NCBI GenBank assembly: GCA_964540055.1
Contig: CAZILC010000004.1
Location: 13,745 to 77,744, forward strand
Direction of reading: 5' to 3'
Length of the DNA stretch: 64,000 nucleotides
From: an uncultured Gammaproteobacteria bacterium
Lineage (GTDB): Bacteria; Patescibacteriota; Microgenomatia; Levybacterales; UBA12049
Positions 6,818 to 45,980 of this stretch are shown piece after piece (position 1 is the stretch's first letter; every line of letters begins with the position of its first letter). The translations under genes were made by a program, and so were the position numbers. The notes beneath the pieces are model-generated. The model did no database searches. It worked only from the letters and a program-made list of their open reading frames with translations, and was not told the DNA's origin.

Positions 6818-7876
6818 TTAATTTCCTTCCCGAACCCATTCAATTGTTCTTTTTAGCCCGCTTTCCAAATTTATTTGGGGAGAATATCCTGATAATTCTT
6901 TAACTTTGGTGATATCCGGACATCTTCTCTTTGGCTCATCATTTGGATACAAATCAGGATATTTTATTCTTTTTATTTTAAGGGAGTTATTAAATAACTT
7001 ATTCATTTTTTGCGCGAGTTGATTGACAGATACTTCATCTGTATTATTTCCAATATTATAGGCCTCACCATTTTTAGATGAAAGTAAAACTTTAAGTATA
7101 TAAACTATGGCATCAGCGATATAACAATAGCTTCTTGTTTGTTCCCCCTTCTCATACACCTGTAACTCTTGACCATTTATCGAATTAAAAACAAATGAGG
7201 GAATTACTCTAAAATCGTCTTTATGGATTCCTGGACCATAGACATTAAAAGGACGAACCGTTTTTACCGGAGTCTTAAACTTATCAAAATAGACCATGCA
7301 TAAAGTTTCACCAAGTCTTTTTGATTCATCATAACATGACCTTGGACCGGTACACGATACATTTCCGTAGTAATCTTCAGTTGTTGGTACATGTTTATTA
7401 TCCGGATCGCCGTAAATTTCACTTGATGAAAAAAATAAAAAGCTTTGTACTTTTTTCTTTTTTGCATACTCCAGTAAATTTCTTGTACCATTTATCGTGA
7501 CATCAATTGTTTCAAGTGGAAATTGACGATAATATCTTGGTGAAGCAATACCGGCTGCATGCATAATGTAATCAACTTTTTTTCTAATAGCGATAGGTTG
7601 TGAAACATCTGCTTTGATAAAGGTAAAATATTTTTTGTCGAGTTCAAGTTTTGCCACACGGCTGCTTTTACCGGTGAGATAATTATCAATTGAAATTACT
7701 TTGCATTTTTGTTTGAGCTTTTTATTATTTAATTCATTGATGACTGCAAGGATATAACTGCCCAAAAATCCAGCACCACCCGAAATAAGAAGCGTTTTAC
7801 TTTCTAATTTTTTAAAATCTTTTCCTAACGCTGAAATAATTTCATCAATATCCTGAGCAATAATTTGGGATTTCAT
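6818..7876 (-). CDS. UDP-glucuronate decarboxylase (UXS / ArnA-C-terminal-like) extended SDR
   Basis: Motifs are GGAGFLGS and SSSEIYGDP...TEDYYGNVSCTGPRSCYDESKRLGE, which closely parallels the UXS signature STSEVYGDP...GPRACYDEGKR. The ATG at 7876 forms an ATGA overlap with the stop of the upstream gene. The longer 7972 start lies inside that gene. Confidence 0.7.
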   Translation of the reverse strand: MKSQIIAQDIDEIISALGKDFKKLESKTLLISGGAGFLGSYILAVINELNNKKLKQKCKVISIDNYLTGKSSRVAKLELDKKYFTFIKADVSQPIAIRKKVDYIMHAAGIASPRYYRQFPLETIDVTINGTRNLLEYAKKKKVQSFLFFSSSEIYGDPDNKHVPTTEDYYGNVSCTGPRSCYDESKRLGETLCMVYFDKFKTPVKTVRPFNVYGPGIHKDDFRVIPSFVFNSINGQELQVYEKGEQTRSYCYIADAIVYILKVLLSSKNGEAYNIGNNTDEVSVNQLAQKMNKLFNNSLKIKRIKYPDLYPNDEPKRRCPDITKVKELSGYSPQINLESGLKRTIEWVREGN

Positions 7877-9123
7877 TTTTTGATTTTTGGTCGTGGGACC
7901 GGTACAATAAATTTTCCTCCTTTTTTTGAGAAGCTCTGATTCTTTGCAATAATTGAATCGGCAAAATTCCAAGCCAATATCAAAAGATAATCAGCTTTGT
8001 CATTACTAAAAGTCGCGAAATCTTTGACAGGTATTCTTTTCCCGGGGGAATAAAGTCCTTGTTTCCACGGACTATCATCAACGATATACTCAAGCGTCTC
8101 TCGACCGATATTGAAATAATTTAGAAGCGTATTCCCTTTTGCCGGTGCACCATACCCGACAATTTTTCTTCCTGATTTTTTCAATTTATATAAAAGGTTC
8201 AAAAGAAGTATTTTATTTTTTTCTATCTCTTTGGCATAATCGGTATATGTACTTATCTTATTAAGTTTACTTGCTTTTTCCTTAGTAATAAATTTTTTAA
8301 CAGTTGGTCGAACTTTCACATCACTTTCTTTTCTTGCAATATATACTCGTATACTGCCCCCGTGTACCGAAACTTTCTCTACATCGACAACATGCATTTC
8401 AAACCTGTCAAAGATTCGTTGTAATGTCTCAACGCGCCAGTAAGACATATGTTCATGATAAATCAAATCAAAATATCTTTTTTGAATAAAATCAATAAGA
8501 TATGGTGCTTCAATCATAAATACACCATTTTTACCAAGCAGCATTTTAACTGAAAGAATTATTTCATCCAGATCATCAATGTGAGCAAAAACATTGGTTG
8601 CCGTAATTAAGTCTGCTAAGCCATATTTCTGTTTTATTTGCTTTGCAACTTTTCTGTTCATAAACTCTGCAATTGTGTCAATTCCAATGTTCTGTGCAAC
8701 AGTAGCAATCTTTTTTGCAGGCTCTACTCCCAAAACCCTGATCTTTTTTTCTTTAAATGGTTTAAGAAGTATTCCGTCATTGCTACCAATATCAATTACT
8801 AATGATTCATTGTTCAATTGAAATTGTTTTTCAGCTTTGTCTGCAAATTGGATAAAATGATCAATAAAAACTTGCGATGTTGAAGAAACATACACATAGT
8901 TGGAGAATAAAAGCTCCGAAGATATGCTATGACCTAATTGGAGAAAAGTACACGTATTACAAAAATTTACTTCAAGCGGATAATATTTTTCATCTAATTC
9001 AACCTGTTTTTCCGTTAAAAAAGCATTAGCAAGAGGTGTCGATCCAAGTATGATGACCGTTGTGAGATTGGTGTTCAGACATACTCGGCAGCTTTTCCTT
9101 TTATAAATTTGAGGCTGTATCAT
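7873..9123 (-). CDS. NDP-ketosugar C-methyltransferase (Zn-ribbon + class I SAM MTase + C-methyltransferase C-domain), paralog 1 of 3
   Basis: It has an N-terminal CxxC...CxxC (CRVC...CNTC) plus VIDIGSNDG, TATNVFAH and YHEHMSY. This is the TylCIII/NovU-type architecture. Confidence 0.7.
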   Translation of the reverse strand: MIQPQIYKRKSCRVCLNTNLTTVIILGSTPLANAFLTEKQVELDEKYYPLEVNFCNTCTFLQLGHSISSELLFSNYVYVSSTSQVFIDHFIQFADKAEKQFQLNNESLVIDIGSNDGILLKPFKEKKIRVLGVEPAKKIATVAQNIGIDTIAEFMNRKVAKQIKQKYGLADLITATNVFAHIDDLDEIILSVKMLLGKNGVFMIEAPYLIDFIQKRYFDLIYHEHMSYWRVETLQRIFDRFEMHVVDVEKVSVHGGSIRVYIARKESDVKVRPTVKKFITKEKASKLNKISTYTDYAKEIEKNKILLLNLLYKLKKSGRKIVGYGAPAKGNTLLNYFNIGRETLEYIVDDSPWKQGLYSPGKRIPVKDFATFSNDKADYLLILAWNFADSIIAKNQSFSKKGGKFIVPVPRPKIKK

Positions 9124-11886: not shown

Positions 11887-12951
11887 TTAGAAAGAAGAAG
11901 CCATTTTTATCCCAAATTCAATGCGACCTCGTAATATTTCTCGGTTTTTATGATGATATATACGCGCAACAGCTTTCGCAAGAGAAAGACGAAGGTAATA
12001 ATACCAATACCTTTGCCAAAAATTCTTTGGGAGTTTTTTATTTTGACAATACCCTTCAAAAAGAGCGTCAAACCAGGACTGATTCCCATAAGCACCGCTC
12101 CCGAAAAAAGCGAGGTCATAAATAAAATCACCTGATAATGCATCTCCCCAATCGATAAATACTATTTCCTTATTTCTTACGAATATATTATGATTAGCGA
12201 GATCGCCATGAAGTAATACAGGCTCTATTTTTTTTAATAAAAAGCTTTGTTTGGTAAGAATATCCTTTATTATCTTTCTCTCCTTCACGGAAATTACATT
12301 TTGTTTCTCACAGAATTGCAAATGTGAATCAAGATTGCAAAAAATAAATTGTTCCCAGCTTTCATATGCTCCTGTCAAAAATGTTTTATTTACTTTGAGA
12401 AGATAGGGACCGTATTTTTTTCTTTTTATCTGATGGATTTTTGCAAGTAATTTCCCTGCATTTTGATGAAATTCTTTAGGAATTTTTTTTTGTAATGAAA
12501 TCGTATATAGGGTATTACCATACTGATATTCACTTATTTCATAATCTGTTGGAATTACTTTTCTTGATACATCAACAAAAAGAATATTTTTTCGCGGAAT
12601 ATTTTTTGTTTCGAAAAGTTCATCAATTTGTTTTTCGATAAAAAACTGAAACTCTTTATGTATCCGGGGAAAACTATTAAAACGGACTACATGTGTTACA
12701 TTATTATTATCAGTTACGAAATATACTTTGTGAAGACTCGTATTTGATACCTGTTTAATTGTTCTCGGTTCTCTACCAAAATAAACCTTATAAAGTTTTT
12801 GTATATTCTTTATTGAAATTTCTATTGGGGAATTATGCCTTATTAAACGTGGAAAGTCAGTGGTAGTAATAAAGAGTGATTTTCTAGAATTTTCAAATTC
12901 CAGTATATCTTCTTTATAATCACGCAACACCTTAGAAATTGTCATAACCAA
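11887..12951 (-). CDS. APH/choline-kinase-fold small-molecule (sugar?) kinase
   Basis: LLHGDLANHNIFV matches the HGDxxxxN catalytic loop and FIDWGDA is the DxG-like metal-binding motif. Confidence 0.6.
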   Translation of the reverse strand: MVMTISKVLRDYKEDILEFENSRKSLFITTTDFPRLIRHNSPIEISIKNIQKLYKVYFGREPRTIKQVSNTSLHKVYFVTDNNNVTHVVRFNSFPRIHKEFQFFIEKQIDELFETKNIPRKNILFVDVSRKVIPTDYEISEYQYGNTLYTISLQKKIPKEFHQNAGKLLAKIHQIKRKKYGPYLLKVNKTFLTGAYESWEQFIFCNLDSHLQFCEKQNVISVKERKIIKDILTKQSFLLKKIEPVLLHGDLANHNIFVRNKEIVFIDWGDALSGDFIYDLAFFGSGAYGNQSWFDALFEGYCQNKKLPKNFWQRYWYYYLRLSLAKAVARIYHHKNREILRGRIEFGIKMASSF

Positions 12952-13858
12952 GTTGTTGGCTAATTACTCGTGTATACATTTTAATTTCTGCATATTCCTG
13001 TTTTGTTAATTCTTTACTTGTTTCTTTATTTTCGTGACTTGTAGGTGTTTGAATTGTTCCCCAAGGTGTTGTAAAAGTAAGTCTTTTTCCATTCCATGAA
13101 CGATACGCGAGGCTGTCAGAATAGGTAATTCCGAGTTTTTTAACAAGAGGTAGAAAAAAATTCTCTTTTTTTGCAACGAGGTCTTCAAAAGTTACAAGAT
13201 GAAAATTTTTAGGATATTTTTTTGCAAAAATAAGCGCGTAGTATTGTACAATACTCCATGTAAGAGCATATCTTTTAAGAGAATAAGGAACCGGACGTCT
13301 TTTTGTCTCAGCATATGCGGAATAAGGATTACGAACAATATGGACAATATGCGCTTGCGGAAAATCCGCAAAAATCTTATCAGCATCGACACCAATGATA
13401 GGGCTATAACCCATATAGACTTTTTCCCTACCGCTACGGTTATAATCTTTCCAGGCTTCAAAAGTGGAAATAAAAAAAGATTCGATGATATTTTCTCGTG
13501 TTCTTGGTGACTTTTTAAGTAACTGTAAAAAAATATTTTTACGATCACTATCTGTTAATTTCATTTCTGCGTCTTTAAATTTACTTGCAAGAGGTGTTTT
13601 AATATGTCTTTTGAGTTCTTCGTCGATAATATTTTCGTAATCATTTTCAAATGTATCATTGAGAGAAAATTCAGGCCAACGGTATTTGACAGGAAAACTA
13701 CTTTTCAAATAATCATTAACAAATGGTGTCCCTAACTGAGACTCGAAAGGATATACAAATAATTGTGGGTGACCATCAAAAAAACGATGTATTGTGTTTC
13801 CTCCATTCTCATACATCGCTGAGATCATGATAAATTTGAATGGTAATTTGTTCAACAT
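12932..13858 (-). CDS. Sulfotransferase-family protein (putative)
   Basis: 308 aa and soluble. HIVHIVRNPYSAY resembles the 3'-phosphate-binding RDPxD-type motif, and there is an N-terminal P-loop-like segment SAMYENGGNTIHR. The assignment is moderate only. Confidence 0.4.
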   Translation of the reverse strand: MLNKLPFKFIMISAMYENGGNTIHRFFDGHPQLFVYPFESQLGTPFVNDYLKSSFPVKYRWPEFSLNDTFENDYENIIDEELKRHIKTPLASKFKDAEMKLTDSDRKNIFLQLLKKSPRTRENIIESFFISTFEAWKDYNRSGREKVYMGYSPIIGVDADKIFADFPQAHIVHIVRNPYSAYAETKRRPVPYSLKRYALTWSIVQYYALIFAKKYPKNFHLVTFEDLVAKKENFFLPLVKKLGITYSDSLAYRSWNGKRLTFTTPWGTIQTPTSHENKETSKELTKQEYAEIKMYTRVISQQLGYDNF

Positions 13859-13890: not shown

Positions 13891-14586
13891 TTAGTGAAAA
13901 GGCCTAAATCGAAAAATAATCATATATTTAAGCATTTCGAAAATATTTTTTATTGTAGTTGATGAAACACCAGTAGATCTTTTACGTGAAGTAATAGGGA
14001 TTTCAATTATTTTTATTTTTCCTCTAATTTTAAGGAGCAATTCTAAATCAAAACTAACATTTGGTGAAATAAAAGATACTGAAGAGATAACATCTGAAGG
14101 GAGTATTTTTGGCGTACCATTGATATCTCTATAGCGAATGTTAAAAAGTATAAAGGCAAGATTATTATAGAAATTTGAATTGATTTTTCTGATAAGATTT
14201 TCTCGTGTAATGCGTTTCGTTTTAACCAAAACATTTTTTTTTGTGGATGCCAAACGATACATCTTGGGAATAATTGCAGGATCAATTTGATTATCTGAGA
14301 CGGTATAACAAATATATTTTCCTTTCGCATGCCTAATTCCTTTTGCTACTGCTTTTCCCCAGCCTTTCTCAGAGGTATACAGGTAATAATTTTTGTAAAC
14401 TTTTATTAGTTTTTTAAGCACTTCAAAACTTTTATCTGTAGAGCCGTTTTCAATACACAAAACCTCATAAGAGATGGTTGTCTTTGACAGGTAATGATGG
14501 ATATCATGGACAACCTTTTGGATTACTTGTTCTTCATTGTGGACAGGAACAATAATTGATAAGTCAGGTAATGTATTTCTAGACAT
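13891..14586 (-). CDS. Short GT2 glycosyltransferase (DPM1/ArnC/GtrB-like polyprenyl-phosphate sugar synthase candidate)
   Basis: 231 aa with LSIIVPVHNEE, ENGSTD and VSDN (DxD-like). There is no C-terminal TM. Confidence 0.6.
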   Translation of the reverse strand: MSRNTLPDLSIIVPVHNEEQVIQKVVHDIHHYLSKTTISYEVLCIENGSTDKSFEVLKKLIKVYKNYYLYTSEKGWGKAVAKGIRHAKGKYICYTVSDNQIDPAIIPKMYRLASTKKNVLVKTKRITRENLIRKINSNFYNNLAFILFNIRYRDINGTPKILPSDVISSVSFISPNVSFDLELLLKIRGKIKIIEIPITSRKRSTGVSSTTIKNIFEMLKYMIIFRFRPFH

Positions 14587-14821: not shown

Positions 14822-15775
14822 ATGTCTACAAAAAGCAAAGGACAGGTTTTTATAACCGGTGCAAGCGGTTTTGTCGGAGCAAATCTTACAAGAGCTTTAA
14901 TAAAAAAAAATTACGCAACGCATATTCTCACAAAATCAAAAATTTTCCCATGGAGATTACAAGGTCTTGAAAATAAAATTAGCAATCATATTGGAGATAT
15001 AACTGATTTTTCCTCAGTAAAGAAGACCTTAACAAGCGTTAAACCTGATTATATTATCCATCTTGCAGTCTACGGTGCCTATCACTTTCAAACCGAATTG
15101 GATAAAATTGTAAATGTTAATATTGTCGGTGTAAGAAATCTTCTTGATGCGTCACGTGATATTCCCTATAAGTGTTTTATTAATACTGGAAGCTCATCGG
15201 AATATGGTATTAAAAATGCTCCGATGAAAGAAAATGATTTTTGTGACCCGATTAGTTATTATGCAGCCACCAAACTCGGTGCAACACATATTGGTAAAGT
15301 ATTTGCTCTCATGAATAACAAGCCGGTAGTAACTTTTCGTTTATTTTCAGTGTATGGGCCTTATGAAGCCCCAACAAGACTTGTACCTGTAATGATGAAA
15401 TCGTTAATCACGAGACAAACTATTAATCTCTCTCCTGGAAAACAAAGACGTGATTTTATTTATGTTGAGGATGTTTGTGATGCGTATCTTAAAGCATTAA
15501 CAGTAGGTAAAAAAATCACAGGGGAGATTTTAAACATAGGAACAGGAAGAGAATATACAAATGAAGAAGTCGTCAAAGCACTTTTTGCGGTTACCGGACA
15601 AAAAACAAAGATTGCTAAAGGAGCATATCCCAAAAGACCCTGGGAAGCATTACATTGGAAAGCAAGTATATCCCATACGAAGGAACTATTAGGTTGGACT
15701 CCTAAAGTTACTCTTGACAAAGGCTTGCAAGGAACATATTCTTGGTTTGAAAAAAATGTCCATCTATATCAATAA
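14822..15775 (+). CDS. NAD-dependent nucleotide-sugar epimerase/dehydratase (extended SDR)
   Basis: VFITGASGFVGANL and YYAATK (YxxxK) fit the family. I prefer the ATG at 14822 over the TTG at 14777. Confidence 0.7.
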   Translation: MSTKSKGQVFITGASGFVGANLTRALIKKNYATHILTKSKIFPWRLQGLENKISNHIGDITDFSSVKKTLTSVKPDYIIHLAVYGAYHFQTELDKIVNVNIVGVRNLLDASRDIPYKCFINTGSSSEYGIKNAPMKENDFCDPISYYAATKLGATHIGKVFALMNNKPVVTFRLFSVYGPYEAPTRLVPVMMKSLITRQTINLSPGKQRRDFIYVEDVCDAYLKALTVGKKITGEILNIGTGREYTNEEVVKALFAVTGQKTKIAKGAYPKRPWEALHWKASISHTKELLGWTPKVTLDKGLQGTYSWFEKNVHLYQ

Positions 15776-15777
15776 AA

Positions 15778-16506
15778 ATGTCGAAATTTTCCCTTAAAAA
15801 GTTAACAAAAGAGCAAAAAAAGTTAAGAAAAAGAATCCTTGAAGTAAGTTATGAACAAAAACTTTCTCATATAGGATCTTGTCTCAGTGTCATCGATATT
15901 ATTGCAGCTATTTATAAAATAAAAAAACCTACAGAGAAATTTATTTTATCTAATGGTCATGCCGGAGTTGCCTGGTATATTATTTTGGAAAAATATAAAA
16001 TTATCGATAGTTCCCAGTTAAAAACATTGGGTGTTCATCCCGACAGAAATCCTCTGATTGATATCCATGTTTCAACAGGAAGTTTGGGCCAAGGATTCCC
16101 CATTGCACTTGGCATGGCTCTTGCCAATCGTCATAAAAACGTCTACTGCATGCTATCAGATGGTGAAAGTACCGAAGGAAGTATCTGGGAGACCCTCAGA
16201 ATTATTCAAGAAAATAACGTACTTAATTTAAAAACAGTGATAAATGTTAATGGCTGGTCAGCTTATGCTAAAGTAGCTATTCCTCCTCTGGTAAAACGAT
16301 TTAAAGGTTTTGATTTTAATGTAGATAAAATTGACGGTCATGACATAAAAAAAATTGAACAAGCATTGAAAAAGAAAAATACAAAACCAACAATAATTTT
16401 TGCATATACACAAGTTGAACAATTTTCTTTTCTCAAAGGTTTGGATGCACATTATTATGTCATGAATCAAGACGACTTTGAAAAAGCGCTAAAAAAATTA
16501 ACATGA
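15778..16506 (+). CDS. Transketolase-like ThDP enzyme, N-terminal (PP-binding) subunit
   Basis: 242 aa with SHIGSCLS, SNGHAG and LSDGESTEGSIWE (GDG-type ThDP/Mg motif). It has an ATGA overlap with the next ORF. Confidence 0.65.
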   Translation: MSKFSLKKLTKEQKKLRKRILEVSYEQKLSHIGSCLSVIDIIAAIYKIKKPTEKFILSNGHAGVAWYIILEKYKIIDSSQLKTLGVHPDRNPLIDIHVSTGSLGQGFPIALGMALANRHKNVYCMLSDGESTEGSIWETLRIIQENNVLNLKTVINVNGWSAYAKVAIPPLVKRFKGFDFNVDKIDGHDIKKIEQALKKKNTKPTIIFAYTQVEQFSFLKGLDAHYYVMNQDDFEKALKKLT

Positions 16507-17003
16507 GCAAACATAAATTTCACCGAATGCGGCCTCTTTTTGCCACTAGCATTCACGAACATATGAAAAAAAACAAAGACATATGGGTAATTGTCGGCGA
16601 TTTCGGTTATCGCATGTGGGACGATGTAAAAAAAGATTTCCCGGATCGTTTTATTAATGTTGGTGCATCTGAGCAAGCTATGATCGGAATTGCCGTTGGA
16701 CTAGCTCTTGAAGGGAAAATTCCTGTTGTTTATACAGCCACAACTTTCCTTCTCTATAGACCTTTTGAGACTATCCGTAATTATATAAATTATGAATCAA
16801 TCCCTGTACATCTTATCGGATCGGGAAGAAAAAAAGACTATAAGCATGACGGTATATCCCATTGGGTGCTTGAAGATAAAAAGGTTATGTCTTTATTTAA
16901 AAATATTTCCGCTCATTGGCCGAAAGATGAAAATGAAATTCCAAGACTTGTCGAAAAAATGATTATCAGTAACAAACCATGGTATATTAATTTAAAACGT
17001 TAA
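16503..17003 (+). CDS. Transketolase-like ThDP enzyme, pyrimidine-binding subunit, lacking the usual C-terminal domain
   Basis: 166 aa with FINVGASEQAMIGIAVGLALEG. It ends at KPWYINLKR, about where the Pyr domain normally ends. Confidence 0.55.
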   Translation: MSKHKFHRMRPLFATSIHEHMKKNKDIWVIVGDFGYRMWDDVKKDFPDRFINVGASEQAMIGIAVGLALEGKIPVVYTATTFLLYRPFETIRNYINYESIPVHLIGSGRKKDYKHDGISHWVLEDKKVMSLFKNISAHWPKDENEIPRLVEKMIISNKPWYINLKR

Positions 17004-17203
17004 ACTTACTTAAAAGTTAGAAATCTCATTCCAAAAACCTTGTAGCAAAATTCAAGGTATTAAACATTACCCTAATATATCACATAGATACCTGCTTTAC
17101 CCAATATATTTTACCCCTAATTCGTTCGACAAAAGTATCAACTCCAGAAGCCTCGTATCGACCAAGGATCTCATAACTTGATAGCATAGCAGAGCCGATT
17201 ATC

Positions 17204-17233
17204 TTGCTAAACGCAAGTTACTAGTACTATAAT
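17204..17233 (+). promoter_or_regulatory. Sigma70-like promoter, TTGCTA-18 nt-TATAAT
   Basis: The -35 is at 17204..17209 and the -10 at 17228..17233. The ATG follows 10 nt after the -10 and no SD is visible. Confidence 0.4.
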
Positions 17234-17243
17234 TTTGTAAGCA

Positions 17244-18482
17244 ATGTATCTCGCTAACAAAATTTCTCTCAGCTCAATTCTTCTAGCTTGTTCCTTCTTA
17301 ATCGCTGTAATTATTTCCTTCCACTATATACTTCCTGACATAATTGGATCCCCTGGAGGATACTTTCCGGGAGGTGAAAGTGTCTCAGTTCATATCGCAA
17401 TGGCAAAAATGATCCTTAACGGTTCAATTCTTCATCCGCCAAATCTTATCGAAAACTTTTTATTTCCCGCTTCGAACCATCTACTTCTTGCACTAATTTT
17501 GTTAACCAGAATTCCCGTCAATCTGTTTAATGTAATTGGAATTGCTGCGCTTTTTGCTGTAGCTTTATACACGGGAAAAATATTTAACTTCACTCGCATA
17601 TACGCTGTTTTTTTTGCGATTGCATTATGCTCTATCTATGGCATTCTGCGTTATGCTTTAGCTCAACAAATCGATATATGGTTATTAGTCTGGTTTTTAT
17701 TAACTTTAATACTATTATATAAGCCAAAGCCAACAATGTTATACTATGTTTTTTTGGGGTTTAGTTCGGGGATGTTATTTGGAAGCCGGTATTTCACTTG
17801 TGTGAATTTACTGATTCTACTCATTTTATATTATCGTAACTTTTTTAAGTATCTCACTATTAAGCGGTTTCTCATCTTTGCATGTTTGGTTTGCATCTTG
17901 GGAGTGTCCTGGTATATACGAAATTATATTGCAACGGGTAATCCATTTTATCCGCAAGGATTCCTCATGTTTAAAGGGGCGTGTCAAAACGAATGCTACA
18001 TGAATACTGTACTCAAGACAGTCATCACTCATCCCGCTTTTATAATCAGTGCATTTATTTCAGAATATATGATCTGGTCGTTCGCGTTTGTCCTTCTGCC
18101 AATCTTTTCAATTATTACATTTATAACCAAGCAACATAAAAAATTCACTACGGTAAACAAACTAATTCTTCTGGGAATGATAAATATTCTTATTTATTTA
18201 TTCTTTCCATCATCAGATGTGTATCATGGAGTAGTCTCAAGCGTACGATATTCATTTCCCATATATGGAACATTCATGCTCGCTCTATTCGTACTCGCTA
18301 AGCAATTACATTATGAGAAATTACTCGAGATAATCACTTTTGCAAACATCAGCTTTCTCATATTACCATATCCTTATCATCCAAAACTGTTATATCTTTA
18401 TGTGCCAATAGTAACTTCTGTAATATACTTCCTGGACAAACAAGCTGCTAAGTTTTATATTCTCAAAAACGCCCGTAAATAA
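17244..18482 (+). CDS. Polytopic membrane protein (GT-C or O-antigen-polymerase-like; family unresolved)
   Basis: 412 aa with about 11-12 hydrophobic spans and no soluble domain. Confidence 0.3.
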   Translation: MYLANKISLSSILLACSFLIAVIISFHYILPDIIGSPGGYFPGGESVSVHIAMAKMILNGSILHPPNLIENFLFPASNHLLLALILLTRIPVNLFNVIGIAALFAVALYTGKIFNFTRIYAVFFAIALCSIYGILRYALAQQIDIWLLVWFLLTLILLYKPKPTMLYYVFLGFSSGMLFGSRYFTCVNLLILLILYYRNFFKYLTIKRFLIFACLVCILGVSWYIRNYIATGNPFYPQGFLMFKGACQNECYMNTVLKTVITHPAFIISAFISEYMIWSFAFVLLPIFSIITFITKQHKKFTTVNKLILLGMINILIYLFFPSSDVYHGVVSSVRYSFPIYGTFMLALFVLAKQLHYEKLLEIITFANISFLILPYPYHPKLLYLYVPIVTSVIYFLDKQAAKFYILKNARK

Positions 18483-22051: not shown

Positions 22052-23314
22052 ATGAATAAAAGTATTGTCACTGTTATTGGTATAGGAAGAGTTGGATTAC
22101 CGTTTGCCCTCGTTATCGCTAATGAAGGATATAAAGTTTTTGGTATTGGAAGAGACGAAGAAAAAATTGAAAGTCTAAAAAAAGGAAAAATGCCGTTTGT
22201 TGAGGAAGGAGCAGAACTGCTTAAAGAACATGAGAATAAAAATTTTTTCCCTACTACCTCTTATGACTCAATAAAAAAATCGGACATCATTATTCTTACC
22301 TTGGGTACCCCGATTGATGAAAATATGAATCCGGTATTGGGACAGATCAATACTGTAATTCAAAAAATCACCCCGCTTTTAAGGAATGGTCAACTAATAA
22401 TTCTACGAAGTACTGTTTCACCAAATACAACAAAATATGTGAAAGAAACCCTAGAAATCAAAACAAAACTCAAAGTAGGACGAGATATCTTCCTCGCTTT
22501 TTGTCCTGAACGGATCGCAGAAGGAAAAGCGGTAAAAGAAATTAAAGAAATTCCTCAAATTATTGGGGGTATTGATATTCGTTCAACAAAACGGGCTAGA
22601 CTTTTTTTTGAAAGTTTGGGAATTGAATGTATTACAACAGATGCGACAAGCGCAGAATTGGCGAAATTATTTACTAATATGTACCGGTATATTTCTTTTG
22701 CGATAGCAAATGAATTTTTTGTGATTGCGGAAAATTTTAACAGAGATATCAGTGAAATCGTAACGCTTGTTAACCAGGGATATAAAAGAAACGGATTGGC
22801 AATCCCAGGATTCAGCGCGGGCCCATGTCTTTTTAAAGATGGTTTCTTCCTAATAAACGATAATCCTTATCTGGATCTGATTACAGCAAGCTGGAAAATC
22901 AATGAAGCGATGCCTCTTTTCCTAGTAAAAAAATTAAAAGAACGGATTAACTTAAAAGGAAAAAAGGTAGTTATCTTAGGCGTTGCGTTTAAAGCGGAAA
23001 TTGATGATATTAGAGAATCATTAAGTTTTAAACTAAGAAAAGCGCTTCTGAGGGATCATGCTGAAGTAGTACTTCATGATCCTTATGTTAAATTCTATTC
23101 TCAGCAAAAAATTTATCATTCTTTATCTGAAGCATTAGAAGGAGCCGATGCGGTCATAATTGGTACAAATCATAAAATGTATAACGAGAAAAAAAGTGAA
23201 ATTATTGCATCTGTAAAAGGAAAAACGTATATTTGCGATATTTGGAATTCTCTAGAAACTAATAAATTACTATTTACTGCGAATCAGATGAAAACAAAAA
23301 AGAACTACACTTGA
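22052..23314 (+). CDS. UDP-glucose/GDP-mannose dehydrogenase-family nucleotide-sugar 6-dehydrogenase
   Basis: It has the Rossmann motif VTVIGIGRVGLPFA, a catalytic-Cys region GFSAGPCLFKDG and a C-terminal VILGVAFKAEIDDIRES. Confidence 0.7.
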   Translation: MNKSIVTVIGIGRVGLPFALVIANEGYKVFGIGRDEEKIESLKKGKMPFVEEGAELLKEHENKNFFPTTSYDSIKKSDIIILTLGTPIDENMNPVLGQINTVIQKITPLLRNGQLIILRSTVSPNTTKYVKETLEIKTKLKVGRDIFLAFCPERIAEGKAVKEIKEIPQIIGGIDIRSTKRARLFFESLGIECITTDATSAELAKLFTNMYRYISFAIANEFFVIAENFNRDISEIVTLVNQGYKRNGLAIPGFSAGPCLFKDGFFLINDNPYLDLITASWKINEAMPLFLVKKLKERINLKGKKVVILGVAFKAEIDDIRESLSFKLRKALLRDHAEVVLHDPYVKFYSQQKIYHSLSEALEGADAVIIGTNHKMYNEKKSEIIASVKGKTYICDIWNSLETNKLLFTANQMKTKKNYT

Positions 23315-24004: not shown

Positions 24005-24712
24005 TTATATTTTATGTCGAAAAAATGCAAATAAGAACCAAGGCATATAAACAACAAGTGACTTTCCAAATTTAAATTTACTTTTACCATGAACTCGTTG
24101 GTGCCACACCGTCGGTATCTCAATTAGTTTATACCCTAATGCCTTAGACTTTACAACTATCTCCAAAGTGACACTAAAACTTGTCTTACTTTTTAATTCA
24201 AGTTTTTCTAACATTTCTTTTGAATACATTTTATAACTATTTGTTGGATCATAGGTGTTTATACCTGCAAAATTTTTTAACAGAAAGCCTGCTATCCGAG
24301 GAGCAAGTACTTTTAGAGTAAAATTTATTTGCTGTTTTCCACCAGGCATATATCGAGAAGGACAAGCTATTGCGGCAAATTCAGGAACTATCTTTAGCAT
24401 ATCTTTAACTTGCGATAAATCATCACATAAATCTCCCATTGTTACCAGCACTCTAGGAGCTTTTGCCCGCTTTATACCTGTCCTTATTGCACCAGAAGGG
24501 CCAGGTGTCACAATATTTTTCATCACAAAAAGATTCTTTTTACTCTTTAAAACATGTTTTAAAACAGGCAGAGTTGTATCTCCATCAAAATCATAAATTA
24601 TGAGTATCTCATGAGGTATATGAATATGTTTTTTTATTTCATTTAATGTCTTAAGTATATTCTCACTTTCGTTGTAAACAGGAATTATTATTGATAACTG
24701 TAGATTCTTCAT
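24005..24712 (-). CDS. Short GT2 (DPM1/ArnC/GtrB-like polyprenyl-phosphate sugar synthase candidate)
   Basis: 235 aa with LSIIIPVYNESENI and YDFDGD/MGDLCDD acidic motifs. It has an ATGA overlap with the upstream C-methyltransferase. Confidence 0.6.
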   Translation of the reverse strand: MKNLQLSIIIPVYNESENILKTLNEIKKHIHIPHEILIIYDFDGDTTLPVLKHVLKSKKNLFVMKNIVTPGPSGAIRTGIKRAKAPRVLVTMGDLCDDLSQVKDMLKIVPEFAAIACPSRYMPGGKQQINFTLKVLAPRIAGFLLKNFAGINTYDPTNSYKMYSKEMLEKLELKSKTSFSVTLEIVVKSKALGYKLIEIPTVWHQRVHGKSKFKFGKSLVVYMPWFLFAFFRHKI

Positions 24713-25965
24713 GGGACAATTCTTGGTTTGGGAAGAGGTACAATAAACTTCCCTCCTTTTCTAATATATTCACTTTTTTCTAGAAAAAAATCAAGATAAT
24801 TCCAGGTGAGTAATAATGCATATTCGGGCATTTTTTTAAGAAATGTTTCATCACTAATAATCGGAATATGTGACATTGGTGTAATAAGTCCTTGCTTTAA
24901 CGTATTATTTTCAGCGATATATGCAATATCTTTCTGTGTTAATTCAAAATAGTTAAGAAGGGTATTACCTTTTGCGGATGCACCAAATCCTCCTATATGA
25001 ACCCCAGTGCTTTGCAGTTTAACTATTATTGCTAATAATTCTTTTTTTACTTTTGCTATTTTTTTTGCGTAGTTTAAATATGTTTCAATATTTGCTATAC
25101 CCCATTTCTTTTCAAAAGTTGTAATTGTACTAACGGATTTATCTAATGTTCTTTTTCCTTCTTTTTTTTGTACGAAAACACGTATTGCTGGACCTGATGC
25201 CCCAAACGGTATGCGATCAACTTTGAAAATTTCAAGACCAAATTTTTCGAATAATCTAATCATCGGTGTAACGCTTAAATAGCTTAAATGTTCATGATAT
25301 ATGGTATCAAAAAGCGTTTGATCTATTAAATCTATCAAATATGGCGCTTCAATTACAAAAATGCCATTAACATCTAATAGAAAATGTAGACCTTTTACAA
25401 AGCTCGCTAAGTCATCAACATGCGCAAATACATTTGTCGCTGTAACAACTTTAGCTTTACCATATTTTTCCAGAATTTTTTCGGCTATTTTTAAACTAAA
25501 GAAATCTTTAAACACATCAAATCCTTCAGCTATTGCAATATCCGCAACTTTTGATGGTTCGACTCCGAGACGGATAATCCCAGGTTTTTTGTAACCATCC
25601 AATAAAATTCCATCATTGCTACCAATATCAACTACGACATCACCTGATTCAAGCGTATACTCTTTCGTAAGTAATTCAGCAAGCTCATGATAATGATTTT
25701 TTAGTGCTTTTGATGTAGAAGATAAATAAACATAATCATCAAAAATAATCTCAGCTGGAACAACATCTAATAATTGAACAAGATAACAATTTTGGCAAAA
25801 GTAGACATCCAATGGGTATGCAATTTCATTAGCTATTTGATCTGAACGAATAAAGCTATTTGAAGGTGGCTGATCTCCAAGTGAAAGAAATCTCTTAAGC
25901 TCTTTTGACCCACAGTATCTACATTTTTCATTTTTTTTCGCTAAAATACTTTTTTTAAGAGGCAT
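24709..25965 (-). CDS. NDP-ketosugar C-methyltransferase, paralog 2 of 3
   Basis: Motifs are CRYC...CQNC, VVDIGSNDG, TATNVFAH and YHEHLSY. It aligns colinearly with 7873..9123 and 30536..31804. Confidence 0.7.
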   Translation of the reverse strand: MPLKKSILAKKNEKCRYCGSKELKRFLSLGDQPPSNSFIRSDQIANEIAYPLDVYFCQNCYLVQLLDVVPAEIIFDDYVYLSSTSKALKNHYHELAELLTKEYTLESGDVVVDIGSNDGILLDGYKKPGIIRLGVEPSKVADIAIAEGFDVFKDFFSLKIAEKILEKYGKAKVVTATNVFAHVDDLASFVKGLHFLLDVNGIFVIEAPYLIDLIDQTLFDTIYHEHLSYLSVTPMIRLFEKFGLEIFKVDRIPFGASGPAIRVFVQKKEGKRTLDKSVSTITTFEKKWGIANIETYLNYAKKIAKVKKELLAIIVKLQSTGVHIGGFGASAKGNTLLNYFELTQKDIAYIAENNTLKQGLITPMSHIPIISDETFLKKMPEYALLLTWNYLDFFLEKSEYIRKGGKFIVPLPKPRIVP

Positions 25966-29667: not shown

Positions 29668-30546
29668 ATGAGAAAACAAAAAATACTTTTATTTGGTGGA
29701 AATGGTTTTTTAGGAAAGAAACTTATCAAGGAGTTAAAAAACAATTTTACTGTCGCTCCATCACACACTGAATTGGATTTACTACAAATTGATAAAGTAT
29801 ATGAATTAATTGATAAAACTATTCCTGATGTAATTATCTATACCGCTGGAATAACCAGAATTGATCAAGCAGAAGCAGATGAAAAACTTGCTTTTACTCT
29901 TAATGCAGAGATACCTGCAAAAATTTCACAATTTATTTCTCGCCAAAGAACATCATTTATCTATATTTCTTCAGATGCAGTATTTGATGGATATACAAAT
30001 AAATATATGTTTATCGAGACAGATAGACCAAAACCTAAAAGTATCTATGGAAAAAGTAAACAACAAGGTGAAGATAAAATTTTGAATAGTAACACAAATA
30101 ATACTGTAATCAGACTTATTACACTATTTGGATATGATAATATAAGGCAAAATTTTTTGACAAGAACTTTAACAGATTTGAAAAATAACAAAAAGATTTT
30201 TGGGATTATTGATCAGGTACAAAATCCCTTGTATGTTGAGGCAGCAGCACAGGCAATTTCATTCAGTATAAAAAAGCAATTATCAGGTATTTATCATTTC
30301 GGTTCCCTGGATTGGAATACTAATTATAATTTTATTACTAATCTCGCAGATGTATTTAGTTTAGATAAGAGTTTGATTGAAAGAATCTCTTTTAAAGATT
30401 TTATGAGGACAAGAAATGGATACAGAAAAAAAAAGAGTGTTTTGTTATGTGAAAAATTCAAAAGTATTTCTGATAATAAAATTCTTATAACTACAAATGA
30501 ATCTTTTGAGTTATTATATAAGGAATATAAAAAAATTACTCAATGA
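29668..30546 (+). CDS. RmlD-like NDP-4-ketosugar reductase (dTDP-4-dehydrorhamnose reductase family)
   Basis: Motifs are KILLFGGNGFLGKKL, SSDAVFDG and YGKSKQQGE (YxxxK). Confidence 0.65.
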   Translation: MRKQKILLFGGNGFLGKKLIKELKNNFTVAPSHTELDLLQIDKVYELIDKTIPDVIIYTAGITRIDQAEADEKLAFTLNAEIPAKISQFISRQRTSFIYISSDAVFDGYTNKYMFIETDRPKPKSIYGKSKQQGEDKILNSNTNNTVIRLITLFGYDNIRQNFLTRTLTDLKNNKKIFGIIDQVQNPLYVEAAAQAISFSIKKQLSGIYHFGSLDWNTNYNFITNLADVFSLDKSLIERISFKDFMRTRNGYRKKKSVLLCEKFKSISDNKILITTNESFELLYKEYKKITQ

Positions 30547-31804
30547 TTTTGGGGACTGGTAATGGTTTGATAAATTTCCCTTTAAATCCTTTCTCTTTTA
30601 ATTTGGTAATTAATTCATCTGCGATATGCCATGAAAGAAGAAATGCATATTCTGGTTGATCTTCGATCAACTTATCCTCATTGAGTACAGGTATGATTGT
30701 CCCCGGAATATAATGACCTATTTTATGTGAACCCTTAATTTCAACAACTGCATCAATTATTCCATCATCTAGTCCGAGATAATTTATCAAAGTCGTGCCG
30801 CGAGAAGGTGCACTAATACCATAAATTTTCTCTCCTTTTAATTTAATATTGCCCAGTAATTTATATAATCGTAATTTTGAATCTATGACATTTTTCCTAA
30901 ACACAGCAAAAGACTTTGTATCTGTTACTGCTGATTTCTCCTTTTTAAGAAGTTTTTGTACGGTTTTTTGAATAGGATATAATCCTTTTTTTGCCGAATA
31001 CACGCGTATTGAACCACCATGTGAAGGAATTTCTTTAGCATGAAAAACCTCTAAACCATGTAATTTAAGAAGATAAATTAAGCTATGGAGTGAATAGTAG
31101 CGTAAATGTTCATGATAGATAGTATCATATTGCACATTAGTGATAAAGGGTAAAAGGTAATGAGATTCACTTATAAACACCCCATCTTTTTCAAGAAGAG
31201 AAACAATATTTTCAATCACTTCGTGAATATTTTCCATGTGTGCAAAAACATTGGTAGCGGTGATAATCTTTGCCTTTCCATACTTTTCTTTAACGGCTTT
31301 CGTTGTGCTTTTATTAAAATACTCAAGAATTGTCGGTATCCCTTGTTTGATGGCCAATTTTCCGATATCCTCAGGTGTTATCCCTAAAACAATATGATTT
31401 TCTTTAAAATTTTTTAACAGATTGCCATCATTTGATCCGATATCGATAACGAGATCATCTTTTTTTAGATTAATCAATTTTGTACTTTCCGTATAAAGCT
31501 CTGCGAAATTTTCTCTTAAAACTTTGGTCGTACTACTAGTGTAAGGATAACTTTCAGAAAATAATATTTTTGGATCTACGATAAGACCAATCTGGACAAG
31601 TTTGCACTTACTACAAAAAAGTAATTCTGCCGGGTAACTTGGTTGTTCATGCGGTTTTGTGCCGATTTTTGGCATTGTATTCACTGGAGGCATGTATCCT
31701 AAAAAAATTATAGATTTAAGTTTTGGATTTTGACAAGTTTGACAAGAAGTAACAACGATAGCTGTATTTGATCCGAACGCTCGTGGTAAAATATCTTTCA
31801 TCAA
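30536..31804 (-). CDS. NDP-ketosugar C-methyltransferase, paralog 3 of 3
   Basis: Motifs are CQTC...CSKC, VIDIGSNDG, TATNVFAH and YHEHLRY. Confidence 0.7.
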   Translation of the reverse strand: MMKDILPRAFGSNTAIVVTSCQTCQNPKLKSIIFLGYMPPVNTMPKIGTKPHEQPSYPAELLFCSKCKLVQIGLIVDPKILFSESYPYTSSTTKVLRENFAELYTESTKLINLKKDDLVIDIGSNDGNLLKNFKENHIVLGITPEDIGKLAIKQGIPTILEYFNKSTTKAVKEKYGKAKIITATNVFAHMENIHEVIENIVSLLEKDGVFISESHYLLPFITNVQYDTIYHEHLRYYSLHSLIYLLKLHGLEVFHAKEIPSHGGSIRVYSAKKGLYPIQKTVQKLLKKEKSAVTDTKSFAVFRKNVIDSKLRLYKLLGNIKLKGEKIYGISAPSRGTTLINYLGLDDGIIDAVVEIKGSHKIGHYIPGTIIPVLNEDKLIEDQPEYAFLLSWHIADELITKLKEKGFKGKFIKPLPVPKIIE

Positions 31805-43998: not shown

Positions 43999-44014
43999 AC
44001 CACAAAATCTCCGG

Positions 44015-44033
44015 ATCCTGGACAAGCCAGGAT
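44015..44033 (+). terminator. Hairpin ATCCTGG-acaag-CCAGGAT, a possible terminator overlapping the next promoter
   Basis: It has a 7-bp perfect stem and starts 17 nt after the stop at 43998. The downstream T-tract is weak. Confidence 0.3.
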
Positions 44034-44047
44034 GACAAATTTATAAT
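44019..44047 (+). promoter_or_regulatory. Sigma70-like promoter, TGGACA-17 nt-TATAAT
   Basis: The -10 ends 6 nt before the ATG at 44054, which gives a leaderless geometry. Confidence 0.4.
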
Positions 44048-44053
44048 AAAAGT

Positions 44054-45283
44054 ATGAAATTACTTTTTATCAGCGAAGTCTATACACCCTGGCAGGGTGG
44101 GGCTATCGTTGCGATTAGAAACTTGATGAGGCAACTCGGAGAAGATGGGCATGAAGTCTCTATCGTCACAGGTGAAAAAAGAAAGCGCTGGCGGCTTTGG
44201 GGAGTGCGAAAAGAATATGATCAAGAATGCAAAGCAACTGTGTATCGAATTCCGGCAGTTCCCTATCCGTTTAACACCATGGCGACGATGACAATTCCGG
44301 ACTATACAGGAATTAAAAAAATTATCCAAGATGTGAAGCCCGACTGCATGCATATTTTCTCGCCCATTGGCATTGCCGAAAAAATAGCCCTTAAATATGC
44401 AAAAAAATTCCATTTGCCAGTGATCGTCACCAATCACATCATGCCGGAAAATTTCACCTTTAATGTCAAACTCCCAAGGTCCATGGAAACACTTGCTGAC
44501 AAACTCATTTATGATGATTTGATAAATTTCTGCAATCAAGCAAAAGTGGTCACAGCACCCACGAAAACTGCAGTCGGATTGTTAAAAAAACACGGACTGA
44601 GGACAGCGAGTATGGCAATAACTAATGGTGTAGACGCAGATTATTTCCATCCCGGCAAACCTGATGCCCAGACGCTTAGTCGATTTAATCTGGATAAAAC
44701 GAATCAGTATATTATCTATGTTGGAAGACTAGATGGTGAAAAACGGGTTGATTTACTGATCAAGGCAATGCCACATATCCTCAATCGTAATCCACACGCT
44801 AAACTTCTTATTGCCGGAAAAGGACTACAAAAATCTATTTTGGAAGAATTAGTAGCAGCATTACAAATTAAAGACTCAGTTGCCTTACTTGGGAAAATAA
44901 CTGAAGATGAAAAACGTGCGCTTTTACAAATGTCAGATATTTTTGTCATTGCCTCACCATCTGAGCTGCAATGTATCTCGGCCCTTGAAGCACTTAGCTG
45001 TGGTATACCAGTTGTCGTTGCTGACCAAATGGCGCTACAGGAATTGACAGATGGAGAGAAAAACGGATTACAATTTAGCTATCCCAATGAAAAAAATCTC
45101 GCTGAGAAAGTGAATACCTTGCTGGAAGATCCCAAACTCAGAGGCGAAAATGGGAAAAATGGCCGAGCATGGATTGAACAAAATCACCGGTTGTCACACT
45201 CATTGAAACTATATGAAAAAGCATATCAGCAGGCAATCGAGGCAAATCAAAATCTCAACGTTTCTTTACATACGAGTGATTAA
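44054..45283 (+). CDS. GT4-family glycosyltransferase
   Basis: Motifs are MKLLFISEVYTPWQGGA and EALSCGIPVVVADQMALQELTDGEKNG. Confidence 0.7.
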   Translation: MKLLFISEVYTPWQGGAIVAIRNLMRQLGEDGHEVSIVTGEKRKRWRLWGVRKEYDQECKATVYRIPAVPYPFNTMATMTIPDYTGIKKIIQDVKPDCMHIFSPIGIAEKIALKYAKKFHLPVIVTNHIMPENFTFNVKLPRSMETLADKLIYDDLINFCNQAKVVTAPTKTAVGLLKKHGLRTASMAITNGVDADYFHPGKPDAQTLSRFNLDKTNQYIIYVGRLDGEKRVDLLIKAMPHILNRNPHAKLLIAGKGLQKSILEELVAALQIKDSVALLGKITEDEKRALLQMSDIFVIASPSELQCISALEALSCGIPVVVADQMALQELTDGEKNGLQFSYPNEKNLAEKVNTLLEDPKLRGENGKNGRAWIEQNHRLSHSLKLYEKAYQQAIEANQNLNVSLHTSD

Positions 45284-45980
45284 AATTGTAAGGAATTTTC
45301 CCGTGGGTTATTTTTATTTTCAACAGCAAAAAGAGTGAGACATACATATATTTTACAAACAATCTGATTCTCCCTTCCTGCTCATAACGCCGGATGGAAA
45401 CAATAATTTTTTTGTCTCGCAGAAAACGAAATTTCCCCAATTTACTTGCGCGCGCGACATAATCCTGATCTTCGGTAATGAAAATTTCTTCATCAAATCC
45501 GCCAATCGAATCATGAATGCTCTTTTTGATAAAGGTACAATACCCAACCCCATTTTTAAGAAAGCGTTCAGTCGCAGCAAAATAGGTATTAATCATTCCG
45601 ACACCAAACCTGTCAATTACATTTTTTGAAATCGTGCTGGCTAAACAACAGGCAACACCTAATTTTTTACGATTAAATTCATTGGTAGTCACTTCCAAAA
45701 AATCATCATCCGGTAATAATGAATCCGCATCCAGAAATAACAATAACGGCGAAGTCGCAAATTTCTCTCCTTTATTCCTCCCGATCCCCGGATGATTCCC
45801 CCCCTGAACGACTTTGCAACCATACTCCTTCGCAATCTCGCGCGTCCTGTCAGTTGAATCTGCATCAGCAACTATAATTTCAGCGGGTTGAACAGTCTGT
45901 GATTTGATCGACTGAAGCAATCTCGAAAGATATGGTTCTTCGTTTTTGGTCGGGATAATGATACTAAGGGGGATGCTCAT
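45255..45980 (-). CDS. Short GT2 glycosyltransferase
   Basis: 241 aa with LSIIIPTKNEE, IIVADADSTD and FLDADS (DxD). Confidence 0.65.
   Translation of the reverse strand: MSIPLSIIIPTKNEEPYLSRLLQSIKSQTVQPAEIIVADADSTDRTREIAKEYGCKVVQGGNHPGIGRNKGEKFATSPLLLFLDADSLLPDDDFLEVTTNEFNRKKLGVACCLASTISKNVIDRFGVGMINTYFAATERFLKNGVGYCTFIKKSIHDSIGGFDEEIFITEDQDYVARASKLGKFRFLRDKKIIVSIRRYEQEGRIRLFVKYMYVSLFLLLKIKITHGKIPYNFNHSYVKKR

Follow-up and report, generated by a model that had tools for sequence, protein, structure and literature searches.

A candidate sugar-branching module with a two-domain transketolase-like enzyme in a Patescibacteria glycan island

The branching of nucleotide sugars by thiamine diphosphate (ThDP) enzymes is established for two groups only, the YerE-like and the E1-like enzymes. 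YerE of Yersinia pseudotuberculosis, which serves in the formation of yersiniose A, acts on CDP-4-keto-3,6-dideoxy-D-glucose, and the branched product is then reduced by YerF (PMC9306805). Split transketolases (TKs) of the miharamycin and amipurimycin systems, members of the TK superfamily encoded by two genes, have been proposed to transfer a hydroxyacetyl group onto a keto sugar in company with an oxidoreductase, and 13 further split TKs of Streptomyces are cited there from Krug et al. (PMC12247030). In the split TK of Carboxydothermus hydrogenoformans (ChTK; 6YAK/6YAJ) the diphosphate-binding (PP) and pyrimidine-binding (Pyr) domains are found on separate chains, both of which are needed for activity. 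Described here is a module of three genes, for a short-chain dehydrogenase/reductase (SDR) and two TK-like subunits, in a 64,000-nucleotide stretch of DNA (the window; GenBank assembly GCA_964540055.1, contig CAZILC010000004.1, positions 13,745 to 77,744 of the forward strand) from an uncultured Gammaproteobacteria bacterium of GTDB lineage Patescibacteriota; Microgenomatia; Levybacterales; UBA12049. The evidence tips modestly in favor of the three genes forming a single module that makes a C-branched nucleotide sugar by transfer of a two-carbon (C2, glycolaldehyde) unit followed by reduction.

The module lies on the forward strand. Its first gene (14822-15775) encodes the SDR, a protein of 317 amino acids (aa) recognized by PF01370 (E-value 1e-46) and PF16363 (1e-44). 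The open reading frame (ORF) opens with a TTG at 14777; the ATG at 14822 gives the length of 317 aa, in agreement with homologues and with an independent gene call. The TAA stop of this gene is followed by a gap of 2 nt and then by TK-N (15778-16506), which encodes a TK-like PP subunit of 242 aa (PF00456, 1e-13; PF13292, 3e-13). An ATGA overlap, read directly in the sequence, joins TK-N to TK-Pyr (16503-17003), which encodes a Pyr subunit of 166 aa (PF02779, 6e-20) ending in KPWYINLKR before a TAA stop. Such close coupling of the three genes speaks for a single module. The ORFs and their junctions bear out this layout as it had been read in an earlier note made from the letters of the same DNA. 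Since identical genes are present in an independent Logan assembly (SRR9179560), the layout is not an assembly artefact.

The second subunit lacks the C-terminal domain of TK (TKC, PF02780), as the earlier note had also claimed. Its last residue, R166, aligns with R520 of Escherichia coli TktA, and R10 corresponds to TktA R358; because of the position of R166, the chain is seen to stop at the end of the Pyr domain. In profile alignments the family spans residues 318-474 of human TK and residues 36-193 of 6yaj. A TKC domain was not found by tblastn in the window or in related short-form loci, nor was a TKC ORF found in any of 160 related loci surveyed by blastp, which rules out a TKC encoded by a separate gene. 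The TKC-less build is a family trait and not a truncation. An exhaustive search among 1.84 billion representatives yielded 5599 relatives of the Pyr subunit. The best matches are proteins of 150-180 aa, with identity down to about 35%, and TKC-bearing relatives of about 300 aa appear from an E-value of about 1e-30. Relatives consisting of the Pyr domain only make up dozens of 50%-identity clusters in Patescibacteria.

Structural models are in keeping with two complete domains. The AlphaFold2 model of the 166-aa Pyr subunit comprises a whole domain with a mean predicted local distance difference test score (pLDDT) of 95.6, and its Foldseek comparison with 6yaj, the C chain of the split TK, gave TM-scores of 0.87 (query) and 0.48 (target), half of that chain being covered. 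[quoted passage not shown]

The residues of the active site were compared with those of TktA, with the numbering of its reference sequence confirmed against 16 published residue positions. Counts for the PP subunit refer to 120 family members, and those for the Pyr subunit to 60 short and 62 full-length (about 300 aa) relatives among the best 150 representatives. The equivalents of TktA H26, H66, H100, D155, N185 and H261, which in this protein are H31, H61, H87, D128, N158 and H225, are invariant in all 120 PP members. The GDG-X(25-30)-N motif by which TK binds ThDP and Mg is present with its first Gly changed to Ser, a change shared by 120/120 members; here it reads S127-D128-G129 and, further on, N158, and the Asp and Asn are invariant. 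The PP members also have Asn in place of D183 and Trp in place of I187, and their LSNGHA, HPD and STGSLGQG motifs are of the TK type. In the Pyr subunit E57 and H120 stand for E411 and H473, both conserved in at least 55 of the 60 short forms, and F437 is conserved. D116 occupies the position of D469; Asp is found there in the subgroup to which this protein belongs and in 33 of the 60 short forms, with Ala, Leu or Gln in the long forms. To judge from these residues, the cofactor and donor machinery of TK is intact. DXS has Phe at the position of His100 of TK, and the mutants H100F or H100L of TK are moved toward pyruvate (PMC7661550); because His100 is invariant in the family, the pair is assigned to the TK type and not to the DXS type. 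DXS also has PP, Pyr and TKC on a single chain, as against two chains and no TKC here.

The phosphate-binding set of TK (R358, S385, H461, R520) is only half retained, through its two arginines. R358 is represented by R10, in a conserved N-terminal MRxxF (Arg in 44/52 short and 55/61 long forms), a correspondence drawn from the alignment of the profile to PDB sequences and a count of the spacing, since MAFFT did not pair the two residues. R520 is represented by R166 (Arg or Lys in 53/60). The segment that carries S385 is deleted in the Pyr subunit. At the position of H461 there is a Gly, G108, as in 55/60 short and 61/62 long relatives, and His was found in 0/62 full-length relatives among the best 150 representatives. 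The earlier note had named the retention of all phosphate-binding residues among the marks of a housekeeping TK; two of the four, H461 and S385, are lost.

Similar distances are seen with whole-protein models. Against the TK model NF004559 the PP subunit scored 146 bits and the Pyr subunit 67 bits, where the cutoff is 488; against TIGR00232, also for TK, the scores were 61 and 18.5 bits (cutoff 682), and against TIGR00204 for DXS they were 35 and 40.5 bits (cutoff 466). The E1 alpha model PF00676 gave no match to the PP subunit at E <= 0.01, and PF02775 gave a weak local match only (1.8e-6) over the ThDP motif, the overall architecture being of the TK type. Three signatures are common to the short forms and their 300-aa relatives: SDG, (A/W)HY at the H261 position, and Gly at H461. 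TktA has GDG, His461 and HG at H261, and ChTK has GDG and His461, its reference fragment ending before the H261 position. In a neighbor-joining tree of the Pyr domain, which is approximate and without bootstrap, the clade excludes the canonical TKs. The TKC-bearing forms branch at the base and are paraphyletic, and one nested cluster takes in 55 of the 60 short forms. The pattern fits a loss of TKC within a lineage of sugar-operon TKs, as far as such a tree can be read. [quoted passage not shown] In nearly every context examined, more than 100 loci, an SDR is found beside the pair together with genes for sugar nucleotides and glycans; genes of the pentose phosphate pathway were found in none.

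This association was counted in loci that extend for 2.3 kb or more to each side of TK-N, of which there were 31 from metagenomes and 63 from viral contigs. An ORF consisting of the Pyr domain only follows TK-N in 31/31 metagenome and 61/63 viral loci, and an SDR gene on the same strand lies within 2.3 kb in 27/31 and 54/63, respectively. Among the metagenome loci a glycosyltransferase of family 2 (GT2) of 310-330 aa comes next in 25/31, and 22/31 have a methyltransferase of about 300 aa; in the related cassettes, which usually carry the latter, it is either divergent, in the position that a GT2 holds in the window, or lies between SDR and TK-N. The SDR, PP and Pyr module recurs in the related loci L001, L003-L005, L011 and L013; L014 has PP and Pyr as one fused protein. 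The cassette GT2, which follows the Pyr gene (L001:9217-10203, L003:9229-10194, L004:5652-6599 and L005:11205-12185), has two C-terminal transmembrane helices, and full-length alignments match it to PgfS (250 bits) and ArnC (160 bits); by these likenesses it is a GtrB-type polyprenyl-phosphate sugar transferase. L004, the most compact of the relatives, is a cassette of methyltransferases, SDR, TK pair, GT2, GT-C and GT4.

The fused protein of L014 (6001-7284; P0219, 427 aa) is a natural PP-Pyr fusion that also lacks TKC. Its gene has as neighbors those for a radical-SAM enzyme, for glycosyltransferases and for an SDR of the classical ketoreductase type. The ThDP motif of the fusion is GEAE, neither GDG nor SDG, and its metal binding may differ, if the motif is a guide.

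The nearest TKC-bearing relatives, of about 305 aa, are those of Caldanaerobius fijiensis DSM 17918 and two metagenome-assembled genomes (MAGs) (L008-L010). In all three the operon has the order NTP-transferase, SDR, TK-N, TK-Pyr+C, SDR, DegT-like protein and GT2. Curated models identify a glucose-1-P cytidylyltransferase (449 vs 300), a CDP-glucose 4,6-dehydratase (519 vs 278) and RfbH/E1 (751 vs 423). The pathway encoded by these genes yields CDP-4-keto-3,6-dideoxy-D-glucose, the substrate of YerE. Branching by a C2 unit is supported because the TKC-bearing relatives are located in operons that make this substrate, and because an orthologous SDR accompanies them.

Relatives at 40-51% identity are also encoded in 407 stretches of IMG/VR, on contigs classed as viral, which were found with an alignment of the PP subunit (TK-N) as query. 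The viral version is smaller, with a PP subunit of about 200 aa and a Pyr subunit of about 156 aa (L097-L176, e.g., L104:5968-7084). The genes lie in co-directional islands of sugar genes and are typically arranged as SDR-N-P, DegT-SDR-N-P-SDR or N-P-SDR-DegT-SDR. About 16 of the viral DegT-like genes are of the E1/RfbH type (440-459 aa, 40-49% identity), and the island of L104 has a strong 4,6-dehydratase-type SDR along with GT2, GT4 and GT10 genes. The pairing of the module with 4,6-dehydratase-type SDRs and DegT-/E1-type enzymes in viral loci is a further point in favor of branching. The viral character of the contigs was seen superficially, as in the HNH endonuclease and YopX of L013, and neither TK subunit has an annotated family in PHROGs.

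For the substrates, the C2 donor, the order of the steps and the quaternary structure we infer the following scheme. The two subunits would assemble into a TK-type ThDP enzyme without TKC, probably an alpha2beta2 tetramer, with the Carboxydothermus split TK as the analogue. The enzyme would take glycolaldehyde from a ketose phosphate or from hydroxypyruvate to form 1,2-dihydroxyethyl-ThDP; a glycolaldehyde-type donor is probable because all of the TK residues that activate ThDP and hold dihydroxyethyl-ThDP have been kept. The C2 unit would then be added to the carbonyl of a nucleoside diphosphate (NDP)-4-keto(deoxy)hexose, instead of an aldose phosphate, to form a 4-C-glycolyl tertiary alcohol. 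R10 and R166 at the mouth of the substrate channel would hold the donor's phosphate and the NDP-sugar's diphosphate, and without H461 and S385 the channel would be wider, with room for the nucleotide. Reduction of the side-chain ketone by the SDR with NADPH would complete the reaction, as YerF does after YerE. In most relatives from Patescibacteria the product would pass to the PgfS/ArnC-like GT2, giving a polyprenyl-phosphate sugar for GT-C enzymes; the methyltransferase gene is located in the same cassettes. It is a tentative extension of this scheme, about which doubt slightly outweighs confidence, that the pair is the founding member of an unrecognized family of natural two-domain (PP + Pyr only) TKs, derived from TKC-bearing sugar-operon TKs, and that this is the first TK lineage to have a ketone, that of an NDP-4-keto sugar, as its physiological acceptor. 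Searches of the open-access literature turned up no account of transketolases without TKC, nor of TK-like pairs in operons for CDP-deoxysugars or for the glycans of Patescibacteria.

The role of the SDR bears directly on the order of the steps. The protein falls below every NCBIfam equivalog cutoff, and its best match in the PDB, 6zl6, gave only 114 bits. Its identity is 50-64% to the SDRs of the Patescibacteria cassettes, 41-42% across the full length to the SDR that adjoins the TK genes of the CDP-sugar operons, and <= 30% to any other SDR. The motif FINTGSSSEYG is common to the protein and its orthologues. The earlier note had proposed a C2 branch on a keto sugar produced by this SDR. The glycan role and the branching of an NDP-keto sugar have gained support from the CDP-deoxysugar operons; the SDR as the source of the keto sugar has lost ground, since its orthologue is retained in operons that have a dedicated 4,6-dehydratase and RfbH. 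For the same reason, namely that the orthologue persists where a 4,6-dehydratase and E1 already make the 4-keto sugar, a YerF-like role is favored, and by this analogy the SDR is more likely a reductase that acts after branching than a source of the keto sugar.

The opposite order, in which the SDR oxidizes or dehydrates an NDP-hexose to the 4-keto sugar and the TK pair then branches it, with no separate reductase or with re-reduction by the SDR through its bound cofactor, appears unlikely, and of the alternatives it has the most to recommend it. The best similarities of the SDR in NCBIfam and the PDB are to 4,6-dehydratases and UDP-GlcA 4-epimerases, which pass through 4-keto intermediates, and no other keto-generating enzyme is found near the Patescibacteria cassettes, notably that of L004; in such compact cassettes the SDR could make the keto sugar. 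Against this order stand the retention of the SDR in operons already encoding CDP-glucose 4,6-dehydratase and RfbH, the precedent of YerE/YerF and ErwE/ErwF, in which branching comes first and reduction second, and the classical ketoreductase-type SDR that adjoins the fused PP-Pyr relative. In addition, the residue that follows beta-2 is Lys or Arg in all orthologues, and not Asp or Glu, as is usual for a reductase with exchangeable NADP(H).

Several observations weigh against transfer of a C2 unit followed by reduction. The preference of the SDR for NADP(H) is suggested by a single general rule of SDR sequences, and its SSSEYG presumably resembles the TSE motif of dehydratases and decarboxylases, a likeness that would also suit the SDR-first order. 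The retained R10, R166 and Asp469 would fit sugar-phosphate substrates as well. No nucleotidyltransferase was identifiable in the window, no 4,6-dehydratase or E1 was found beside the cassette, and in L004 none of the three was found nearby. Nor were orthologues of RfbF, RfbG or RfbH found in the window, so that of the partners of a YerE-type pathway only the SDR is there. The window is atypical in being without the PgfS/ArnC-like GT2 that 25 of 31 relatives possess. No report of a glycolyl- or dihydroxyethyl-branched sugar in these organisms was found in the open-access literature. Sugar branching of the TK type has had no demonstration in vitro; in a 2025 review that role is still pending, and the candidates are from Streptomyces only (PMC12247030).

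Transfer of an acetyl instead of a glycolyl branch, by a DXS- or YerE-like acyloin synthase that decarboxylates pyruvate, is improbable. All of the characterized sugar-branching ThDP enzymes use 2-keto acids, PF13292 (DXP_synthase_N) scores about as well as PF00456 (3e-13 vs 1e-13), and the Pyr model superposes equally well on DXS and TK. These points are opposed by His100, which is invariant in the 120 members, as are H26 and H261, the residues that hold the C1 hydroxyl of the donor in TK, and by the TK-type LSNGHA, HPD and STGSLGQG motifs and the ranking of true TKs mostly above DXS with the PP model.

Some other ThDP chemistry, such as C-C cleavage of a keto sugar or the production of an uncommon ketose or polyol phosphate for later sulfation, phosphorylation and attachment, is very improbable. 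The variation of acceptor-side residues across the clade, with Asp469 in 33/60 short forms, would allow for it, as would the retention of both arginines and the threefold co-occurrence of the module with genes for a sulfotransferase and an aminoglycoside phosphotransferase (APH)-type kinase. However, the conserved partner of the pair is an extended SDR, of a class that acts on nucleotide sugars, and relatives are found within complete CDP-deoxysugar pathways whose product is a known substrate of ThDP-dependent branching. On chemical grounds, cleavage of the TK type requires a free hydroxyl beside the ketone, which is missing in NDP-4-keto-3,6-dideoxy sugars.

It is hardly credible that the pair is a housekeeping TK serving the non-oxidative pentose phosphate pathway, reduced in size like many proteins of Patescibacteria, that simply happens to lie in a glycan island. 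In favor of this reading, none of the catalytic histidines is missing, Glu411, Asp469 and the two arginines that bind phosphate are retained, the core region has a single transaldolase gene with no other TK in the 64-kb window, and JGI records label some relatives 'transketolase'. Against it, H461 has become Gly, S385 is deleted, GDG has become SDG and the scores are 146 and 67 bits against a cutoff of 488, linkage in more than 100 loci is to SDR and glycan genes and never to pentose phosphate genes, relatives occur in 407 viral stretches, the pair sits in a variable island of 31% GC beside a core of 41-45% GC and apart from the canonical TKs in the tree, and the TK genes of a closed Microgenomates genome are in an operon with fructose-bisphosphate aldolase (PMC7143001).

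Database labels of the relatives differ; some are 'transketolase' in JGI and others 'DXP synthase N-terminal domain-containing protein' in NCBI. Two Firmicutes loci that had been considered as short-form relatives were set aside. L007 (30% identity) is a partial match at the end of a contig. L006 (34% identity) proved to be a split TK-like pair of ordinary length without SDG, from a rumen Clostridia MAG (L006:9980-11757; 279 + 332 aa); it keeps GDG, has Glu and Asn at the positions of TktA H461 and D469 and Ser after the His equivalent to H261, and may be another non-canonical TK.

The module lies within a glycan island at approximately 3000-43000, with a GC content of 28-35%, which adjoins a region at 44000-64000 of about 38-45% GC. 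The island encodes three sugar C-methyltransferases, several SDRs, GT2 and GT4 glycosyltransferases, a flippase, and membrane proteins related to YfhO, PMT and PTPS. The adjoining core region has ftsZ, ftsA, ileS, ftsW and the transaldolase (57278-58159; PF00923, 7e-45), found where the earlier note had placed it; a canonical transketolase was not found anywhere in the window. The core proteins are syntenic with those of L004, a related MAG locus, at 50-70% identity, which places the organism in the Microgenomates group of Patescibacteria; L004 has the same core genes and a far shorter island in which the SDR and TK cassette is still present. The three C-methyltransferases (7873-9123, 24709-25965 and 30536-31804, all on the reverse strand; PF08421 and PF08484) are paralogues predicted to act on NDP-sugars, and from their families they point to several C-methyl-branched sugars, which would likewise require NDP-4-keto intermediates. 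A gene at 22052-23314 on the forward strand encodes a nucleotide-sugar dehydrogenase (TIGR03026, 325 bits) that is most similar to UDP-ManNAc dehydrogenases; its presence indicates that the same glycan has uronic-acid sugars.

Downstream of TK-Pyr there is a non-coding gap of 240 nt (17004-17243), in which tblastn with four orthologous GT2 proteins found no GT2 remnant. A promoter-like TTGCTA-18-TATAAT at 17204-17233, a match to the consensus only, precedes the gene on the forward strand for a polytopic membrane protein of 412 aa (17244-18482), which has at least about 10 hydrophobic segments and belongs to no Pfam or NCBIfam family. The earlier note had counted this protein as part of the unit. 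That view does not hold, as it is not conserved with the cassette: no homologue was found in L001 or L003-L005, and related loci have the PgfS/ArnC-like GT2 in its place.

Upstream, and divergent from the module, is a gene on the reverse strand for a soluble GT2 of 231 aa (13891-14586; PF00535, 1e-21) with no transmembrane segment. It is weakly similar to PgfS (58 bits) and to dolichyl-phosphate hexose transferase, and may use the sugar made by the module. Beyond it, also on the reverse strand, are the genes for a sulfotransferase (12932-13858; PF13469) and an APH/fructosamine-kinase-like kinase (11887-12951; PF01636). A pair of this kind adjoins the SDR and TK module in three unrelated contexts: the window, L013:9331-11303 and L025:7238-9230. 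The sulfotransferases of the window and L013 are 37% identical over the full length, and that of L025 is 54% identical to the better match of these two references; in L025 the genes for TK-N, Pyr, SDR, sulfotransferase and kinase are contiguous. The association is weak, and it is possible that the two are accessory genes of the module, in which case the sugar may be sulfated or phosphorylated, or the kinase may be an anomeric sugar kinase.

A TK-like family of 242 + 166 aa adds a candidate to the enzymes that branch nucleotide sugars. The TKC-bearing sister group in the cultured Caldanaerobius fijiensis makes the proposal directly testable, since the operon context there points to a defined candidate substrate. 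The family shows that the TKC domain is dispensable in nature. In metabolic reconstructions of Patescibacteria the pair may be miscounted as a transketolase of the pentose phosphate pathway or as an enzyme of the methylerythritol phosphate (MEP) pathway. The family also points to uncharacterized branched sugars at the surface of ultra-small bacteria and to islands of sugar genes borne by viral contigs. If the proposal is correct, glycolyl- or dihydroxyethyl-branched sugars would be present in surface glycans, in which they have not yet been described, and enzymes that add hydroxyacetyl groups to ketones would be useful biocatalysts for making tertiary alcohols.

Among known systems, YerE/YerF and ErwE/ErwF are like the module in that a ThDP enzyme is encoded beside an NAD(P)H reductase in a glycan locus (PMC9306805). 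YerE differs in that it is a single chain of the decarboxylase (acetolactate-synthase-like) superfamily and uses pyruvate, whereas the pair described here belongs to the TK superfamily and has PP followed by Pyr on two chains. The domain order of YerE is Pyr-TH3-PP. AviB1/AviB2 and KbDH-alpha/beta resemble the module in that they are ThDP enzymes of two subunits by which deoxy-keto sugars receive a C2 branch. They differ in being pyruvate dehydrogenase E1-like, with an E1 beta subunit that carries TKC, and in using pyruvate only; the PP subunit described here is recognized by PF00456 and PF13292, not by PF00676, and the beta-like subunit has no TKC. ComDE is also a ThDP enzyme cut down to PP and Pyr on two small chains, with the Pyr gene before the PP gene and a decarboxylase ancestry. 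This sulfopyruvate decarboxylase, which forms the SPDC family of the TEED classification (PMC2831816), is unrelated to TK beyond the common ThDP fold.

The adjacency of SDR, PP and Pyr genes in a glycan island corresponds to that of a split TK beside an oxidoreductase in a sugar-modifying cluster, as in the miharamycin and amipurimycin systems. The Streptomyces split TKs, likened here by their description, are known from secondary-metabolite clusters only, whereas the module family is found in Patescibacteria glycan loci and on viral contigs. The miharamycin and amipurimycin enzymes are presumably ordinary split TKs with a TKC domain. ChTK is the best match of both subunits (1.8e-21 and 1.3e-18; TM-scores 0.86 and 0.87) and has the same division of PP and Pyr between two chains. 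It differs in that it has GDG and His461, its second chain includes a TKC domain, and it is the only TK of its organism, whereas the pair has SDG, Gly461 and no TKC; at 242 aa the PP chain of the pair also falls about 40 residues short of the ordered 6yak N chain (282 aa). Taken together, these comparisons place the module outside the housekeeping TK, DXS, YerE-like and E1-like classes, nearest to YerE/YerF in its proposed function and, within the TK superfamily, nearest to ChTK in its fold.

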